64,000 nt of DNA, taken from positions 28,449 through 92,448 of the forward strand of contig JANRJA010000086.1 in assembly GCA_033764315.1 (NCBI GenBank). The letters run 5' to 3'. The DNA comes from Oculatellaceae cyanobacterium bins.114. GTDB taxonomy: Bacteria; Cyanobacteriota; Cyanobacteriia; Elainellales; Elainellaceae. The position numbers and the translations under genes are program-made. Of the stretch, positions 38,173-48,193 are shown in pieces (the stretch's first letter is position 1; each line of letters opens with the position of its first letter). The notes beneath the pieces were generated by a model. The model did not search any database. It saw only the letters and a program-made list of their open reading frames with translations, and was not told where the DNA came from.

Positions 38173-38581
38173 AAATCAAACCCCAAAAACTGCCTGCTTT
38201 TTAACAAAGTGCCGCTAACACAATAGCGTGCTCTTGCGCCATAATGTTAGAAAATGTAGACTATCTGAATTCACTAGTGGAAATCTGTGTTAAAGTTGCT
38301 AGTCCTTGGTTAATTCTTTCCAATTGCCCCTAACTTTTTAACTTGCTAGCTAAGATGGGTGCATTCACCCCCCCAGCTCATCAGTCTGCCCGGTTGCTCA
38401 TACGTATATCCGCTAAATTGCTCTATTGCAGCTCTCATTATCACCTTTTCTTATATCCTTGCCAAACCAAGTTTGGTGGTTTTCAGTCCTCAATGTGAGG
38501 TCTGACTTTTTTCGTTGGTACTTCTATCAAGATGCTATAGCGCCGGGGAATTCCCTGAGCTTGAGTCGTTCGAGGAGACGC

Positions 38582-41500
38582 ATGACTAATCTAACCCAAG
38601 CCTCAATTAACTTTACCCTACCAGACCTGGTCGAAATTCAACGCTCTAGCTTCCGTTGGTTCCTCGAAGAGGGGTTAATCGAAGAATTAGATAGCTTTTC
38701 CCCAATTACTGATTACACCGGGAAACTAGAGCTTCATTTCCTAGGTAAAGATTACAAGCTGAAACGTCCAAAATATGACGTAGACGAAGCCAAACGGCGT
38801 GATAGCACCTATGCCGTTCAAATGTATGTTCCTACCCGTCTGATTAATAAAGAAACGGGTGAAATTAAAGAACAAGAAGTGTTCATTGGCGATCTTCCCC
38901 TCATGACCGATCGTGGAACCTTCATCATCAACGGGGCTGAACGGGTTATCGTCAATCAGATCGTCCGCAGTCCTGGGGTTTACTACAAAGCTGAAACTGA
39001 TAAAAACGGCCGTCGCACTTACAACGCCAGCTTGATCCCCAACCGGGGGGCATGGCTCAAGTTTGAGACAGATAAGAACGACTTGGTTTGGGTTCGTATT
39101 GACAAGACCAGAAAACTGTCAGCTCAAGTGTTACTCAAAGCTCTGGGGCTGAGTGATGGTGAGATCTTTGATGCTTTGCGTCACCCCGAATACTTCCAAA
39201 AAACCATTGAGAAAGAAGGGCAGTTCAGTGAAGAAGAAGCTCTGATGGAGCTTTATCGTAAGTTGCGTCCTGGTGAACCTCCAACAGTTTCTGGAGGGCA
39301 GCAGTTGCTAGACTCCCGCTTCTTCGATCCTAAGCGATATGATTTGGGTCGAGTCGGACGCTATAAGCTCAACAAAAAATTGCGTCTTACAGTTCCAGAA
39401 GCAACCCGTGTGTTGACTGCACAGGATATTTTGGCAGCAATCGACTACTTGATTAATCTAGAGTTTGACATCGGCATCGTCGATGACATCGACCACTTGG
39501 GTAATCGTCGGGTTCGTTCTGTGGGTGAGTTGCTGCAAAACCAAGTGCGAGTTGGTCTCAATCGGCTAGAGCGAATCATTCGAGAGCGGATGACTGTGTC
39601 AGATGCCGATTCTCTGACACCAGCTTCTTTGGTCAACCCCAAGCCTCTAGTCGCAGCGATCAAAGAATTCTTTGGTTCGTCCCAACTGTCTCAGTTCATG
39701 GATCAAACTAATCCTTTGGCTGAGCTAACTCACAAACGTCGTCTCAGTGCCCTAGGCCCAGGCGGTTTGACACGAGAGCGGGCAGGTTTTGCAGTGCGAG
39801 ACATTCACCCCTCTCACTATGGACGTATTTGCCCAATCGAAACACCTGAGGGCCCAAATGCAGGTCTTATCGGTTCTCTGGCAACCCACGCACGGGTTAA
39901 TAGCTATGGCTTTATCGAAACGCCTTTCTATCCAGTCGAAGGTGGACGAGTGATTAAAGATCGCCCTCCAACTTATATGACAGCGGATGAGGAAGACGAT
40001 TTTCGGGTGGCTCCAGGTGATATTCCTACGGACGAGAATGGCTATATTCTGGGTGAGCAAGTCCCAGTCCGGTATCGTCAAGAGTTTACCAACACTATCC
40101 CTGACGAGGTTGACTATGTGTTAGTTTCTCCCGTTCAGATTATTTCGGTCGCTACTTCATTAATCCCGTTCTTGGAACATGATGACGCCAACCGAGCTTT
40201 GATGGGTTCTAACATGCAACGTCAGGCAGTTCCTCTCCTGCGCCCAGAACGCCCTCTGGTAGGTACAGGGCTTGAGGCTCAAGCTGCACGTGACTCTGGG
40301 ATGGTTATCGTCAGTCGTACTAATGGTGAGGTCACCTATGTGGATGCCGATCGCATCCGAGTTCGAGACGACAACGGCAAAGAACACGAGTACTTCCAAC
40401 AAAAGTATCAACGTTCAAACCAGGATACCTGTCTCAATCAACGCCCGATTGTGTTTGTGGGCGATCGCGTTGTAGCGGGACAGATCATGGCAGACGGTTC
40501 TGCTACCGAAGGTGGAGAAATCGCCTTGGGTCAAAACGTAACCATCGTTTACATGCCTTGGGAAGGGTACAACTACGAGGACGCGATCCTGATCAGCGAA
40601 CGTTTAGTGTACGACGACGTTTACACCTCCATTCACGTTGAGAAATACGAGATTGAGGCTCGTCAGACCAAGCTTGGTCCTGAAGAAATCACTCGTGAAA
40701 TCCCTAACGTCGGAGAAGACGCCCTACGACAACTGGATGAGACTGGCATCATTCGAATTGGTGCCTGGGTTGAGTCAGGAGACATTCTGGTTGGTAAAGT
40801 GACTCCAAAAGGGGAGTCAGATCAACCGCCTGAAGAAAAGCTCTTACGAGCCATCTTCGGTGAAAAAGCACGAGATGTACGCGACAACTCCTTACGGGTA
40901 CCGAATGGTGAGAAAGGGCGTGTCGTTGACGTGCGCGTGTTTACTCGCGAACAAGGTGACGAACTTCCGCCAGGTGCCAACATGGTTGTTCGAGTCTATG
41001 TGGCCCAAAAACGGAAGATTCAGGTTGGTGACAAAATGGCGGGCCGTCACGGCAACAAGGGTATCATCTCCCGCATTTTACCTATTGAAGACATGCCTTA
41101 TTTGCCCGATGGTTCACCCGTTGACATTGTTCTCAATCCCCTTGGCGTTCCTTCTCGGATGAATGTCGGTCAGGTGTTTGAGTGTTTGTTGGGGTGGGCA
41201 GGCGAGAACTTGGGTGTGCGGTTTAAGATGACTCCCTTCGATGAAATGTACGGAGAAGAATCGTCTCGTATTACCACCCACGGCAAACTGATGGAAGCCA
41301 CGAAAATGCAGGATAAGGGATGGGTATTTGACCCTGAACATCCTGGCAAAATCAAGGTGTTTGATGGGCGAACTGGAGAAGCATTTGATCGCCCTATCAC
41401 CGTGGGTAAAGCTTACATGTTGAAGCTGGTTCACTTGGTAGACGACAAGATTCACGCCCGATCGACTGGTCCTTACTCGCTCGTGACTCAACAACCTCTA

Positions 41501-41881
41501 GGGGGTAAAGCTCAGCAAGGAGGTCAGCGATTTGGAGAGATGGAAGTATGGGCACTCGAAGCGTTTGGGGCGGCCTATATTCTCCAAGAGTTGTTAACCG
41601 TGAAGTCAGATGATATGCAAGGCCGCAACGAAGCTCTAAATGCGATCGTCAAAGGCAAAGCTATTCCTCGACCTGGCACACCAGAATCCTTTAAGGTGTT
41701 GATGCGCGAACTCCAGTCTCTCTGTTTGGATATTGCTGCCCACAAGTTAGAAACCAAGGATGACGGTTCTAGTCGAGATGTTGAGGTTGACCTCATGGCC
41801 GACGTCAGTGCTCGCCGTACTCCCTCACGTCCAACTTATGAATCTATCTCACGTGAAGAGATGGAAGAAGTCGAAGAATAA
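38582..41881 (+). CDS. rpoB: RNA polymerase beta subunit
   Basis: [20 protein letters not shown] and [17 protein letters not shown] 38582 follows GAGGAG. Confidence 0.99.
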
Positions 41882-41935: not shown

Positions 41936-41983
41936 TGTCTAAATCACTCTTAAACTGCCACACATAATGAAGGAAGAATAGTG

Positions 41984-44050
41984 ATGCCGAAGCTAGAACA
42001 GCGATTTGACTACGTCAAGATTGGACTGGCATCTCCAGAACGGATTCGCCAATGGGGTGAACGAACCTTGCCGAATGGCATGGTTGTTGGTGAAGTGACC
42101 AAGCCAGAAACCATCAACTACCGAACCCTCAAACCAGAAATGGATGGTTTATTCTGTGAACGTATTTTTGGTCCCGCGAAGGATTGGGAATGCCACTGTG
42201 GTAAATATAAGCGAGTCCGACACCGGGGTATTGTCTGTGAACGCTGTGGCGTAGAAGTAACAGAATCACGGGTTCGGCGGCACCGCATGGGTTATATCAA
42301 ATTGGCGGCTCCCGTCGCTCACGTTTGGTATCTCAAAGGCATCCCCAGCTATATGGCGATTTTACTAGACATGCCTTTGCGGGATGTTGAGCAAATTGTT
42401 TACTTTAACGCTTATGTAGTTCTCAATCCTGGTAATGCGGATAATCTCACCTACAAGCAACTCCTTACAGAAGACCAGTGGATTGAAATCGAGGACCAGC
42501 TTTATAGCGAAGATTCGCAACTGACCGGGGTTGAAGTAGGGATTGGGGCTGAAGCACTGCAACGCCTATTACAAGACTTAGAGCTTGAAAAAGAAGCTGA
42601 GCAACTGCGTGAAGAGATTGCAACCGCTAAGGGGCAAAAACGGGCAAAGCTGATTAAGCGGCTGCGCGTGATTGATAACTTTATTGCCACTCAATCTAAA
42701 CCAGAGTGGATGGTGCTGGCTGTCATTCCAGTGATTCCACCTGACTTGCGTCCTATGGTGCAACTGGATGGGGGTCGTTTTGCAACCTCTGACTTAAATG
42801 ATTTGTATCGTCGGGTCATTAACCGAAATAATCGTCTGGCTCGATTGCAAGAAATCTTGGCACCTGAAATTATCGTCCGAAATGAAAAGCGGATGTTGCA
42901 GGAAGCAGTAGATGCACTGATTGATAATGGTCGTCGAGGTCGGACAGTTGTAGGTGCTAACAACCGCCCCTTAAAATCGCTTTCTGACATTATTGAAGGA
43001 AAACAAGGCCGTTTTCGTCAGAACTTGCTGGGTAAGCGGGTTGATTACTCTGGACGTTCTGTCATTGTGGTAGGGCCAAAACTCAAAATTCACCAGTGTG
43101 GCTTGCCCAAAGAGATGGCGATCGAGTTATTCCAGCCGTTTGTAATTCATCGGTTAATTCGCCAAGGGTTAGTCAATAACATCAAGGCAGCAAAGAAACT
43201 GATTCAACGCAATGACCCCAGTGTTTGGGATGTCTTAGAGGAAGTAATCGATGGACACCCTGTGCTGTTAAACCGTGCTCCAACACTGCACCGTTTAGGG
43301 ATTCAGGCGTTTGAACCCATTTTGGTGGAAGGGCGAGCAATTCAGCTACACCCATTGGTTTGTCCTGCATTCAACGCTGACTTTGATGGTGACCAAATGG
43401 CGGTTCACGTTCCTCTGTCACTGGAAGCCCAAGCAGAGGCTCGACTGTTGATGTTGGCATCTAATAATATCCTCTCACCCGCTACAGGTAGACCTATTGT
43501 TACCCCTAGCCAAGATATGGTGTTGGGCTGTTATTACCTGACTGCTCACAACCCTACTCCTCAAAATGGAGAGAGTAAGTATTTTGTCAGCATGGACGAT
43601 GCGATCGCTGCTTATGAATCAGGGAAAGTGAGCCTCCACGCCTATGTCTGGGTGCGGTTTAATGGGCTGATTGAGCACGATGAGCCAGAATCAGAACCGC
43701 TCTACGTTCATGACGATCTATTTACGCTTGATCTTAAGGATGAGGATCCTCTGGTCAGCAAAGGGGATGTCGTCCTTCCTAATACTGAGATAGTCCCCGG
43801 CGTCGTGGTTCCTGAAATGGGTCAAGTCGTCCAGATCACTGATTCTCAAATCGTGCTTCGACCTGTTCGCCCTCAGGCACCCACCTCTAACTCTATTGAA
43901 GTAACGAAGGTGTATTTAGGAGCAAAGAGTAATAAACCAATGCGTTTGGTACGTGAAGATAACGATGGCAACGTCATATCTCAGTACATTCGCACAACTC
44001 CCGGTCGAGTCATTTACAACAAGGCTATTCAAAATTCCTTGGTGAGTTAG
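41984..44050 (+). CDS. rpoC1: RNA polymerase gamma subunit, with an extra SBHM-like insertion
   Basis: Zn-finger CHC..CERC and catalytic NADFDGDQM. It is 688 aa, longer than usual for this subunit. Confidence 0.99.
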
Positions 44051-44158
44051 TAGGGCATATCAACAGGGAGCCATGAACGTCATTCGATTTGATTGGAGAG
44101 TTCACTGGCTCCACGCATCACTCGTGATATCACACACGAAAGAGGGCAGATTAGCAAG

Positions 44159-47100
44159 ATGACAGAGCAGCAATTAAATCAACAGCCTGAGCAGGCATTT
44201 GTTTTTCGGAATCAGGTCATTGGTAAGAAGCAACTACGGAACCTGATCGCATGGGCATTCACCAATTATGGAACGGCACGTACTGCCCAAATGGCAGATG
44301 AGTTAAAGGATTTGGGCTTCCGCTTTGCGACCCGAGCTGGGGTATCAATCAGTATTGATGACTTGCAGGTGCCACCCAGCAAGCGAGAACTACTGGAGGC
44401 TGCCGAAGAGGAGATTCGTACTACTGAAACTCGCTATACTCGCGGCGAAATTACTGAAGTAGAACGATTTCAAAAAGTAATTGACACTTGGAACGGAACA
44501 AGCGAAGAACTCAAAGATGAGGTTTTGCGATTCTTCCAGGCAAACAACCCGCTAAACTCGGTTTATATGATGTCAACCTCTGGAGCACGGGGAAATATCT
44601 CCCAAGTGCGTCAGTTGGTGGGCATGCGGGGGTTGATGGCGGATCCTCAAGGGGAAATTATTGACTTACCCATTAAAACCAACTTCCGAGAAGGCTTAAC
44701 CGTTACTGAGTACATCATCTCATCGTATGGAGCTCGTAAAGGTCTGGTAGACACGGCATTACGAACTGCTGACTCCGGATATCTAACCCGTCGTTTAGTA
44801 GACGTCTCTCAAGATGTCATCATTCGGGAACTTGATTGCGGTACAGAACGGGGCATTCCGGCTCGGGCAATGACCGATGGTGAGCGGGTGCTGATCCCAT
44901 TAAAAGACCGTTTATTAGGTCGGGTTGCAGCACGTGATATTGTTCATCCGGTCACTGGTGAGGTGATGGTTGCTCGCAATGAAGCGATTTCAGACGAGGT
45001 CGCTCAAAAAATTGGCAAAGCCAAGATTGAAGAAGTAACAGTGCGATCGCCCCTGACCTGCGAGGCAACTCGTTCAGTGTGCCAACACTGCTATGGCTGG
45101 AGTTTGGCTCATGCCACGATGGTTGATTTGGGTGAAGCCGTTGGGATCATTGCGGCTCAGTCTATTGGTGAACCAGGCACCCAGTTAACGATGCGGACGT
45201 TCCACACTGGGGGAACCTTTACCGGTGAACTTGTGCCTCAAGTGCGGGCTCCCTTTGATGGCACAGTTCGTTTAAAACCCAAACAGTTCCGCTCTCGTCC
45301 TTTCCGCACCCGTCACGGGGAAGATGCTCTCGTCGTTGAAGTCTCAATTGATGTCATCGTCGAAGCAGGAAATAAAAAAGAAGCTGTTTCCGTTCCCCCA
45401 GGTTCCATCTTGTTTGCGCAAGAGGGTGCCACTGTGAAGTCAGGACAGATGATGGTTGAAATGCCAGCCACTGGTCGGGTGCGCAAGATTACGGAAAAAG
45501 CAACTAAAGACGTTGCTTCTGACTTGGCAGGAGAAGTGAAATTCTCTGACCTTGCTCCTGAAGAAAAGAAAGACCGTCAAGGCAACACGACCCGTATTGC
45601 TCAACGGGGTGGCTTAGTTTGGATTTTGTCGGGTGAAGTGTATAACTTACTGCCCGGAGCAGAACCCATTATTAAGAATGGCGATCGCGTCGAGAGCAAT
45701 AGCATCTTGGCTGAAACCAAACTGGTTACAGAGCACGGCGGTACGGTTCGTATCCCGCAAGAGAGCGAAGGCAGCAAAGGCGGACGAGAAGTTGAAATTA
45801 TTACTGCCTCTGTTTTATTAGGTCAAGCCCGAGTCTATGCTGAGAGCTATCAAGGGCGAGAACACTACTTTATTGAAACCCAACACAATCAGCGTTTCTC
45901 TCTCATTGCAACTCCAGGTACAAAAGTCACAAACGGACAAGTTGTTGCCGAATTGATTGACGATCGTTATCGCACTCAGACGGGAGGCATCATCAAGTAC
46001 TCTGGTATTGAAGTTGCTAAGCGAGGTAAGGCAAAGGAAGGCTACGAAGTCATTCAGGGAGGAACTATTCTTTGGATTCCCGAAGAATCTCATGAAGTAA
46101 ACAAAGATATCTCGCTCTTGATTGTTGAGGACGGTCAATACGTCGAAGCTGGCACAGAAGTTGTCAAAGATATCTTTTGTCAAAGCAATGGTGTTATCGA
46201 AGTCACTCAGAAAAATGACATCTTACGAGAGATCGTCATTAAACCGGGTGACCTGCACATGATCGACAACCCAGATGCAGTGATCGGCAAAGACGGCACA
46301 ATCGTCAACCCCGGTCAAGAAGTCCTACCAGGTATCACGGTATCTGACCTGCGCTATGTGGAGTATGTTGAAACCCCAGAAGGACCTGCCCTACTCCTGC
46401 GCCCCGTCACCGAATTCTCAGTTCCTGATGAGCCATCGATTCCAACTCAAGAGTCGAGCCAAGAAGAGTCAGGGCGTTCAATCAAGCTCAGAGCAGTGCA
46501 ACGGCTGCGTCACAAAGATGGCGATCGCGTCAAGTCCGTTGAAGGCTTAGAACTCGTTCGCACCCAGTTAGTTCTTGAAATTGACGAAGACGCACCTCAA
46601 TTGGCAGCAGACATTGAGTTGATTCCAGATGAAGTTGAGCCAGAAATATTGAGGTTACAGCTAGTTATCCTCGAATCTCTAGTCATTCGCCGAGATGTAG
46701 CGGCCGATCAAACACAAGGTAGTACTCATACTCGCCTTCTCGTCAAAGACGGGGATCAAATTGCTGCTGGAGCGGTTGTCGCTCGCACCGAAATTCAATG
46801 TAAGGAAGCGGGTGAAATCCGAGGAATTCGTGAAGGAGCCGAAGCCATTCGGCGTTTACTGGTTGTGCGAGATGTCGATCAACTCACTTATCCATTAAAC
46901 GGTCAGCAAGCCAAAGTCAAAGTTGGTGATTTACTAGTTGCGGGCACCTCAATCTCTTCAGGCGTGATTACGGAAGAATCGGGTCAAGTCGTGGATGTGA
47001 CTGATAGTCATGTGGTTCTGCGAATCGCTCGACCTTATCGTGTATCATCTGGAGCTGTTCTCCACATTAATGATGGAGATCTGGTTCAACGTGGTGACAA

Positions 47101-48193
47101 CTTGGTGTTGCTAGTGTTTGAACGCACCAAAACAGGAGACATCATTCAGGGTCTACCTCGGATCGAAGAACTGCTAGAAGCACGCAAACCCAAGGAGGCA
47201 TGCATCTTAGCAGCAAGACCGGGAATTGCTCAGGTTGTCTATGGAGATGACGAGTCGGTTGAAGTCAAAGTCATCGAAAACGATGGTGTAGTTACAGAAT
47301 ATCCACTGGGTCCTGGACAAAACGTTCTCGTTTTAGACGGACAGGAGGTTCGGGTTGGAGAAGCCCTGACCGATGGCCCAGCAAACCCTCACGAAATCCT
47401 GGAAGTGTTCTACAAAATTCATCGGGAAACGTTAGGCACTCACGAAGCAGCCTTAAAAAGCTTGCAAGCAGTCCAAACTTTCTTAGTGAACGAGGTTCAG
47501 TCTGTATACCAATCTCAAGGAATTGAGATTTCTGACAAGCACATTGAAGTCATTGTGCGTCAGATGACCTCTAAGGCTCGTGTCGATGATGGTGGTGATA
47601 CAACCATGCTACCTGGGGAGCTAGTTGAGCTGTATCAAGTAGAACAGGTCAATGGAGCCATGTCTATCACAGGAGGGGCTCCAGCTGATTACACACCTGT
47701 TTTATTGGGGATTACAAAAGCATCTCTGAATACAGACAGCTTTATTTCAGCCGCCAGCTTCCAGGAAACCACACGGGTGTTAACGGAAGCCGCGATCGAA
47801 GGTAAATCTGACTGGTTGCGTGGTCTAAAGGAAAACGTGATCATTGGTCGCTTGATTCCCGCAGGGACAGGGTTTAATGCCTACGACGAACCTAACAACA
47901 TCGATATAGACCTGAGCTATGAAGCCGGTCTATATGATGATGATGTAGATCTCAAGGATGTTGTTCTTGACGATCGCACCGCTCGTACCTATGAGTTAGA
48001 AGGGGGTTTTGATGTCTTTCCACCCCCTGATGCCTTGAGAGGTCGAGATGGCGGAGACTTTACTCGTCCTAGTACGGACTTTAATCGGGCTCCCTATGGT
48101 GCTGCCTTCTCAGGTGACGATGACGATGAGTCATATTCACCCATCCTAGAAGACGATGACGACTTTGAAGATGACACTGATGATGATGATTAA
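44159..48193 (+). CDS. rpoC2: RNA polymerase beta' subunit (C-terminal half) with large SI3 insertion
   Basis: [54 protein letters not shown] and an acidic tail. Confidence 0.99.

Follow-up and report, generated by a model that had tools for sequence, protein, structure and literature searches.

How did RpoC1, the γ subunit of a cyanobacterial RNA polymerase, come to carry 62 residues that most cyanobacteria lack? The question is raised by a stretch of 64,000 nucleotides (here called the window) from Oculatellaceae cyanobacterium bins.114 (GenBank assembly GCA_033764315.1, contig JANRJA010000086.1, positions 28,449 to 92,448 of the forward strand), in which rpoC1 is adjoined by rpoC2. Few enzymes evolve as slowly as RNA polymerase, whose surface changes mainly through lineage-specific inserts. 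An earlier note, made from the letters of the window alone, had proposed that a sandwich-barrel hybrid motif (SBHM) was copied into RpoC1 from SI3, the array of such motifs in the trigger loop of RpoC2. The answer reached here is a modified form of that proposal: the extra residues are probably an old, in-frame, partial duplicate of SBHM-8 of SI3, whose source is encoded 3 kb downstream of the insert in rpoC2, and which may form a β module with a putative surface role at the tip of a hairpin. The identity and origin of the insert are given with high confidence; its functional role is putative and is given with low confidence.

Likeness of the RpoC1 Insert to RpoC2

The two genes (Table 1) are recognized as rpoC1 and rpoC2, which encode the split β′ of cyanobacteria, because their products contain the Pfam Rpb1 domains 1–3 and 3–5, respectively. 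When the 52-residue piece of RpoC1 was compared with the whole of RpoC2 by BLASTP, RpoC1 residues 580–631 aligned without gaps to residues 930–981 of RpoC2, with 22 identities in 51 positions (E 7e-11); the next-best segments of SI3 reached E values of only 0.002 and 0.004. The hand count of the earlier note, 22 gap-free identities in 52, holds, the additional first residue pair being a mismatch. Both protein segments quoted there are exactly the translations of the respective 156-base stretches, and the run of 12 identical bases shared by them (43819–43830 and 46981–46992) is present. The Smith-Waterman score of the pair is 105, while 2,000 shuffled sequences gave a mean of 34.1, a standard deviation of 4.7, and a maximum of 64; the comparison with shuffled controls, by which the note had suggested its idea be judged, is thus passed without a single shuffle reaching the score.

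The expectation that the best matches apart from the protein itself would be SI3 of RpoC2 also proved correct. A profile of 11 inserts matched significantly only four chains in the PDB, all of them cyanobacterial RpoC2 or Si3, with E values from 1.5e-13 to 5e-5 (the Si3 construct of T. elongatus, at 1.5e-13, 8h3v_B, 8syi_Z 905–958, and 8gzg_Z 903–951). In six-frame searches of whole genomes every match outside RpoC1 frames was to RpoC2, in frames that were 1,181–1,426 aa long or cut by the end of a contig; Pfam, searched with the 52-residue piece, returned no family at E up to 1. BLASTP, shuffles, and profile comparisons therefore agree on the homology of the segment to an SI3 barrel of RpoC2.

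At the level of DNA the two 156-base segments are identical at 81 positions, and only 19 of the 52 third codon positions agree, which indicates an old copy and no recently shared DNA; the likeness of the DNA is such as likeness of the proteins would leave behind. These data bear on the most trivial explanation, namely that the resemblance is due to chance, or that rpoC2 sequence was joined into rpoC1 when the genome was assembled. The genome of the window is indeed a draft of 251 contigs. However, the probability of such an origin is close to nil: no shuffle comes near the score, two copies that share 81 of 156 bases do not stem from a misjoin of the same DNA, and the insert is found in 12 separately assembled genomes, of which one consists of 2 contigs and another of 10, as well as in a metagenomic protein.

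Source and Extent of the Copied Barrel

When the profile of the 11 inserts was compared by hhalign with one built from 29 RpoC2 sequences of the last SI3 barrel (probability 99.65%, E 5e-25, 59 columns), columns 1–59 of the insert fell on columns 3–61 of the 82 barrel columns. The last 21 columns of the barrel, which comprise its best-conserved GD-box-like hairpin, have no counterpart in RpoC1. The insert is a partial copy amounting to about three quarters of one SBHM; a complete SBHM of approximately 80–90 residues with both halves is not present. In this respect the earlier note, which had called the segment a self-contained SBHM, has to be amended, as the final hairpin is missing and, in the predicted structure described below, a native strand of RpoC1 fills in. 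A GD-box-like motif, by definition located in a strand and the loop next to it, is present in the insert: its first glycine is invariant, the valine two residues further on is kept in at least 90% of the 11 carriers, and the second glycine is found in nine of the 11, being replaced by asparagine in the genome of the window (G000) and in another genome of the same genus (G001).

The identity of the source barrel follows from this profile alignment taken together with published structures. SI3 is described as consisting of eight barrels, of which SBHM-2 and SBHM-8 form the fin, SBHM-8 being continuous in sequence (Qayyum 2024, PMC10895346), and the fin is given as residues 884–973 plus 424–478 of the Synechocystis protein (Shen 2023, PMC10120043). 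The RpoC2 region of the window aligns to residues 837–1037 of Synechocystis β′2 and 843–1040 of Synechococcus elongatus β′2, and the source-like segment is equivalent to approximately residues 895–950 of the former, that is, within the fin range 884–973; the source is therefore assigned to the fin barrel SBHM-8.

Site of the Insertion

The C-terminal part of RpoC1 was aligned for 30 genomes, consisting of three carriers (G000, G001, and G011, the last belonging to another genus of the same family) and 27 relatives without insert; the coordinates of the hairpin limb and of the insert in Table 1 were obtained by arithmetic from residue positions. In the 27 relatives the tip of the C-terminal hairpin is a short turn ending in Asp-Gly; 26 of these turns have six residues and the remaining one has 11. 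In the carriers this turn is replaced by 62–65 residues (62 in the window). The segment originally pointed out, 43718–43873, is contained within the insert. Measured from stop to stop, the RpoC1 frames are 698–701 aa long in the three carriers versus 625–661 aa in 26 of the 27 non-carriers; the frame of the remaining non-carrier, at locus L011, reaches 701 aa by an upstream extension, its C-terminal part being short. Thus, the protein is overlong as the note had stated, and its view of an in-frame, lineage-restricted insertion into a surface hairpin of RpoC1 is borne out by the alignment.

The same locus L011 (genome G017) is also the one with the 11-residue hairpin tip, which represents a small independent length change there. 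At four loci of one f22 genus (L068, L070, L071, and L074), f22 being one of the families in which the insert was found (see below), the linker following the insert ends in a Gly/Asp-Gly turn like that of the ancestral tip; it therefore seems that the insertion took place immediately in front of the old turn.

On the falling limb of the hairpin, all carriers have in addition an indel of seven residues. It is shared by the non-carriers G035, G036, and G037 (of the families f12, f13, and f14) and was found in none of the 19 aligned non-carriers of the window's own family.

The insert is situated approximately 110 residues past the catalytic loop and in RpoC1; the trigger loop belongs to RpoC2, so the position is not that of SI3. 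Rpb1 domain 3 is divided between the two proteins, with RpoC1 496–561 covering positions 1–60 and RpoC2 34–91 covering positions 105–162 of the Pfam profile, and the insert falls between the two halves. By numbering, not by alignment, hairpin residues 553–660 fall into bD4, a β′ domain specific to bacteria, for which residues 527–617 of Prochlorococcus RpoC1 are listed (Table 2 of PMC11515920). When RpoC1 was scanned in windows of 40 residues, this bD4 region (approximately residues 523–660, at 43547–43960) proved by far the fastest-changing part of the protein: identity to other families is 0.3–0.7 there and nearly always 0.9–1.0 elsewhere, with a lowest value of 0.71.

Predicted Fold

A first AlphaFold2 model (residues 540–689), calculated with four carrier rows over the insert, gave a predicted local distance difference test score (pLDDT) of 33–61 for the insert and was not used for fold comparison. 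For a second model, the alignment combined the carriers, the split flanks of the 27 non-carriers and, in the columns of the insert, 30 barrel pieces of RpoC2, whose first two residues are misplaced at columns 1 and 2. From this alignment with its RpoC2 rows, a mean pLDDT of 94.4 and a predicted template modelling score of 0.81 were obtained. As RpoC2 rows were part of the input, the model is not an independent proof of the fold; it shows what homology implies.

RpoC1 chains and the Si3 crystal structure 8emb ranked at the top when the second model was submitted to Foldseek. The best match by VIA-align was 8emb_B, the T. elongatus Si3 crystal (Z 10.2, root-mean-square deviation (rmsd) 1.0 Å over 57 residues, 30% identity), whereas RpoC1 chains matched the model in 81–86 residues of the flanks only (Z 8.2–9.8). 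The barrels of Thermus β′, at chain residues 162–398, matched with Z 7.6 and an rmsd of 1.6 Å over 51 residues. In the model the insert is a small open β-sheet with a hammerhead loop. The match to 8emb_B spans model residues 35–91 and chain residues 479 to 948; model residues 35–37, which belong to the native hairpin strand, superpose on the chain near residue 479, a strand from a distant part of SI3. The model therefore suggests that in RpoC1 the hairpin's own rising strand stands in for the fin strand which SI3 contributes from far away in sequence.

Distribution among Cyanobacteria

A word search of 5.8 billion proteins with RpoC1 residues 560–660 as query returned only the window's own protein and P0006, a metagenomic protein of 692 aa with 49% identity in the region. 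Among 41 relatives, full-length matches were obtained for G000, G001, and G011 only; of the other 38, 35 have a match that breaks off at residues 567–577 and a second one that resumes at 635–657, and for G023, G025, and G031 only the first part was among the matches listed. Within the family of the window, which as sampled equals the whole order, three of 57 genomes (38 of them at least 90% complete) carry the insert. When 401 genomes of the class were sampled, a match in an RpoC1-sized frame was obtained for 11: the three already mentioned, G093 from family f12, and seven members of family f22. This places carriers in three of 41 families; the remaining six matches were to RpoC2. With a profile of the carriers, the insert was detected in all eight genomes of the order to which f22 and G120 belong and in one of the two genomes of the order of f12 and G093. 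In a sample of 401 genomes of the phylum, for which at most 11 candidates per genome were scored, only G000 and G077 matched, both of them already known as carriers. In the other families covered by the class and phylum samples the insert was not found.

In every carrier the site, the end points, and the seven-residue indel are the same by sequence comparison. The insert is thus rare but not peculiar to the lineage of the window, to which the earlier note had ascribed it; it occurs in three cyanobacterial orders, at the same site in the two others.

Evolutionary History

If carriers are so few and so scattered, has the insert arisen more than once, has it been lost many times, or has it moved? 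A three-gene tree (29 rows, 1,479 columns) was calculated, without the columns of the insert, from the C-terminus of the presumed RpoB, from RpoC1, and from the N-terminus of RpoC2, locus L030 being excluded for lack of an RpoC2. In this tree G000, G001, and G011 form one clade inside the family with a support of 100. In the tree of the RpoC1 core (550 columns, 38 rows), carriers appear in three separate places, following taxonomy: as the f22 clade, with G093 beside the non-carrier G035, and with G000, G001, G011, and P0006 inside the family of the window. This tree requires at least three changes of the insert state. The copied region itself tells another story. In a tree of its 52 columns (without G152, which is identical to G120, and without G100, which was found later), a single branch parts 11 inserts from 35 RpoC2 segments, with supports of 82/91 and presence in 86% of the bootstrap trees. 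The flanks of the hairpin without the insert (75 columns) likewise place 11 carriers on one side of a branch, supported by 97/91.

These results make it very unlikely that each of the three lineages acquired this RpoC2 segment at the same hairpin tip through a copying event of its own. Repeated copying within the operon is conceivable, as rpoC1 adjoins rpoC2; it would agree with the three places of the carriers in the core tree and with the insert of P0006, whose loop is one residue longer, as in RpoC2 of two other orders. However, the inserts do not group with the RpoC2 proteins of their own genomes but are set apart from the 35 RpoC2 segments by that one branch; moreover, their end points are identical, they have derived residues in common, and their flanks cluster as well.

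The loop just mentioned is the GD-box loop, in which P0006 exceeds the other inserts by one residue and equals the RpoC2 barrels of f12 and f22 (L075–L079). The insert of P0006 is also the one nearest to the RpoC2 group in the tree, which could reflect a later gene conversion from rpoC2.

Vertical inheritance of an insertion that dates far back in cyanobacteria, with numerous later deletions, is a better candidate but still unlikely. In its favour, distances between inserts parallel those between cores: in both, the window is closer to G093 than to the third order. In addition, one genus of the third order has retained the ancestral Asp-Gly at the end of the linker that follows the insert, from which a normal tip could be regained by deletion. 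On the other hand, with carriers in only three of the 41 families of the class sample and in three of 57 genomes of the window's own order, a dozen or more deletions would be required; furthermore, 26 of 27 non-carriers have a tip of exactly six residues, and none of the 19 non-carriers of the window's family shows the indel.

Taken together, the insert tree, the flank tree, the core tree, and the pattern of the indel favour the view that the insert arose once, long ago, in a lineage already possessing the indel, and that the hairpin region of other lineages was replaced later. We infer that what was replaced between lineages is the 3′ part of rpoC1, many losses being less likely. In the scenario that would result, part of SBHM-8 was copied once from rpoC2 into the tip of the C-terminal hairpin of RpoC1, in domain bD4, and the 3′ part of rpoC1 with the insert was then exchanged between lineages, which could account for the patchy distribution.

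Several points weigh against this scenario. The insert tree is based on 52 columns and the flank tree on 75, and the support of the insert clade (82/91) is not strong. An approximately unbiased (AU) test on the flanks fails to reject monophyly of the window's family (p 0.126), which is why lateral spread is not proven. The features that the flanks have in common could be due to convergent fitting to the insert, and the distances between modules parallel those between cores, as would be expected from vertical descent with many losses. A search for a recombination break point with sliding windows of 40 residues found only the hairpin region to differ, which is not decisive.

Selection and Putative Role

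Rates of change were estimated by the method of Nei and Gojobori for the four least saturated pairs of carriers. The ratio of non-synonymous to synonymous change (dN/dS) of the insert is 0.105 for G000 and G001, 0.154 for G137 and G179, 0.293 for G137 and G166, and 0.263 for G179 and G166; for the core (544 codons) the same pairs gave 0.003 to 0.026. Amino acid identity, in pairs within the window's family and within one f22 genus, is 97–99% in the core and 51–86% in the insert. The insert is under purifying selection, much weaker than that on the core, and the idea of the earlier note that it was kept in frame long enough to diverge is in keeping with these ratios. Four residues (two Gly, one Gln, and one Arg) are invariant in all carriers; they are likewise conserved in the RpoC2 barrel, a pattern which is that of fold upkeep.

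How would such a module contribute to the enzyme? The insert may fold as a small β module with a hammerhead (GD-box) loop, borrowing the rising strand of the native hairpin as its edge strand, and would project from the polymerase surface at bD4 of β′. It would take no part in catalysis and could be a lineage-specific surface module on the side of the pore and the secondary channel. Rpb1 domain 3 corresponds to the pore 1 domain, at the border of the secondary channel. The tail and fin of SI3 are reported to lie around the rim helix at this channel (Qayyum 2024, PMC10895346). With both the pore 1 domain and these parts of SI3 located at the channel, a role toward SI3 or another factor is possible, and the insert could putatively serve as a steric element or as a docking site for the swinging SI3 or some other partner. 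A more far-reaching version, in which the hairpin and the barrel piece form a cassette that moved between distant orders by homologous replacement, leaving a mosaic rpoC1, and that provides a second docking point for SI3 or a factor near the secondary channel and tunes the dynamics of the trigger loop, appears quite unlikely.

The main rival to any functional role is neutrality: the insert would be a passenger that can fold, is tolerated on its surface loop, and has no effect on transcription. We regard this as somewhat unlikely. Non-synonymous change in the insert is 7 to 45 times faster than in the core, the conserved residues are those that maintain the fold, and most cyanobacteria do without the insert, all of which would suit a passenger. 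Yet the insert is in frame and free of stops in all 12 carrier genomes, it is found in eight of eight genomes of one order, and its dN/dS stays well under 1.

Some of these data limit the case for a surface module with a role of its own. The dN/dS values are rough, because dS ranges from 0.5 to over 2 and most pairs have come close to saturation or passed it. The likeness to SI3 of the confident model is partly built in, given the low pLDDT reached with carrier rows only. Finally, the residues invariant among carriers are those conserved in the RpoC2 barrel, and there is no sign of a new interface.

Relation to Known Inserts of the β′ Subunit

The closest relative of the insert is SBHM-8 of SI3 (β′In6), to which it is linked by clear sequence homology, the same GD-box-like loop, and the superposition of the model. 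It differs in its location, which is RpoC1 and not the trigger loop in RpoC2, in being a single unit (barrel columns 3–61) and not a nested array, and in its occurrence in few lineages, whereas SI3 is present in all cyanobacteria examined. The trigger loop of E. coli contains an SI3 of two barrels. As residues 1006–1164 of E. coli β′ align to the source region in RpoC2, the copied barrel belongs to the part of SI3 that is shared with E. coli, which has no such piece in the N-terminal half of its β′.

The earlier note had assumed that a barrel was placed on a subunit that normally has none, which does not hold in general. In Thermus the N-terminal half of β′, that is, the part equivalent to RpoC1, contains barrels of the same kind in its non-conserved domain (approximately residues 160–450); there, however, the site is bD2 and not bD4, several complete barrels are present, and the phylum is another one. 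Seven insertion sites have been defined in β′, one of them (site iii) in the middle of bD4, and most lineage-specific β′ inserts are of the HABAS or barrel-sandwich kind (Alvarez-Carreno 2024, PMC11515920). In the part of that survey drawn on here, cyanobacteria belong to type 3, their inserts being confined to the trigger loop, and rare variants with inserts in the middle of bD4 are reported from Firmicutes and the Deinococcus-Thermus group only, not from cyanobacteria (PMC11515920). Judging by residue numbers, these variants would share the β′ host domain with the insert described here. Few indels are noted at the ends of the two subunits (Shen 2023, PMC10120043).

Full-text literature searches found no description of the RpoC1 insert, although supplements and insert catalogues could still list one. 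The insert is thus apparently undescribed, while lineage-specific barrel inserts in β′ as such are already well known; what is new is that one polymerase gene served as donor to its neighbour, that only part of a barrel was copied, and that the copy is spread patchily over three orders. It offers an example of a new surface module built from a fragment of a domain, in which the donor is known, the copy is partial, and a native strand apparently completes it. Because of the patchy distribution, recombination of parts of core polymerase genes between cyanobacterial lineages becomes open to a direct test. To our knowledge, the cyanobacterial polymerase works without Gre and DksA factors, and the effect of an extra barrel near the pore side of such an enzyme can be tested too. 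This is a refinement of known principles and not a new kind of system.

Features of the Locus

The plus strand of the window contains four open reading frames in series, three of which are relevant here; they are listed in Table 1 with the elements discussed above.

Table 1. Genes and elements of the rpoC1-rpoC2 locus, in positions of the window
Feature	Position	Strand	Residues or codons	Remarks
Presumed rpoB	38426–41881	+	1151 codons	named from its place only
rpoC1 (γ or β′1 subunit)	41984–44050	+	688 codons from ATG	Pfam Rpb1 domains 1, 2, 3
Rising limb of the C-terminal β-hairpin of RpoC1	43637–43711	+	RpoC1 553–577	native; 30-row alignment; strands in the model
Insert	43712–43897	+	RpoC1 578–639	partial last SI3 barrel plus variable linker; in 3 of 30 aligned RpoC1
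Seven-residue indel, falling limb of the hairpin	43916–43936	+	RpoC1 approximately 646–652	alignments of the RpoC1 C-terminus
rpoC2 (β′2 subunit)	44093–48193	+	1366 codons from TTG	Pfam Rpb1 domains 3, 4, 5; PDB matches are cyanobacterial β′ chains
Source-like segment of RpoC2	46871–47047	+	RpoC2 927–985	first 59 aligned columns of the last SI3 barrel (SBHM-8, fin); hhalign
Final hairpin of SBHM-8	47048–47110	+	RpoC2 986–1006	best-conserved GD-box-like motif; no counterpart in the RpoC1 insert

The starts of both β′ genes are uncertain. As a listed open reading frame rpoC1 extends from 41981 to 44050 (689 codons), beginning one codon earlier at the GTG at 41981, which immediately precedes the ATG (41981–41986); the database copy of the protein, P0005, has 688 aa. 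The reading frame of rpoC2 is opened by TTG, and translation may in fact begin at its first ATG, which lies 22 codons further downstream (44093–44161). At its C-terminus (approximately 48080–48190), RpoC2 ends in a long, strongly acidic tail with many Asp and Glu residues.

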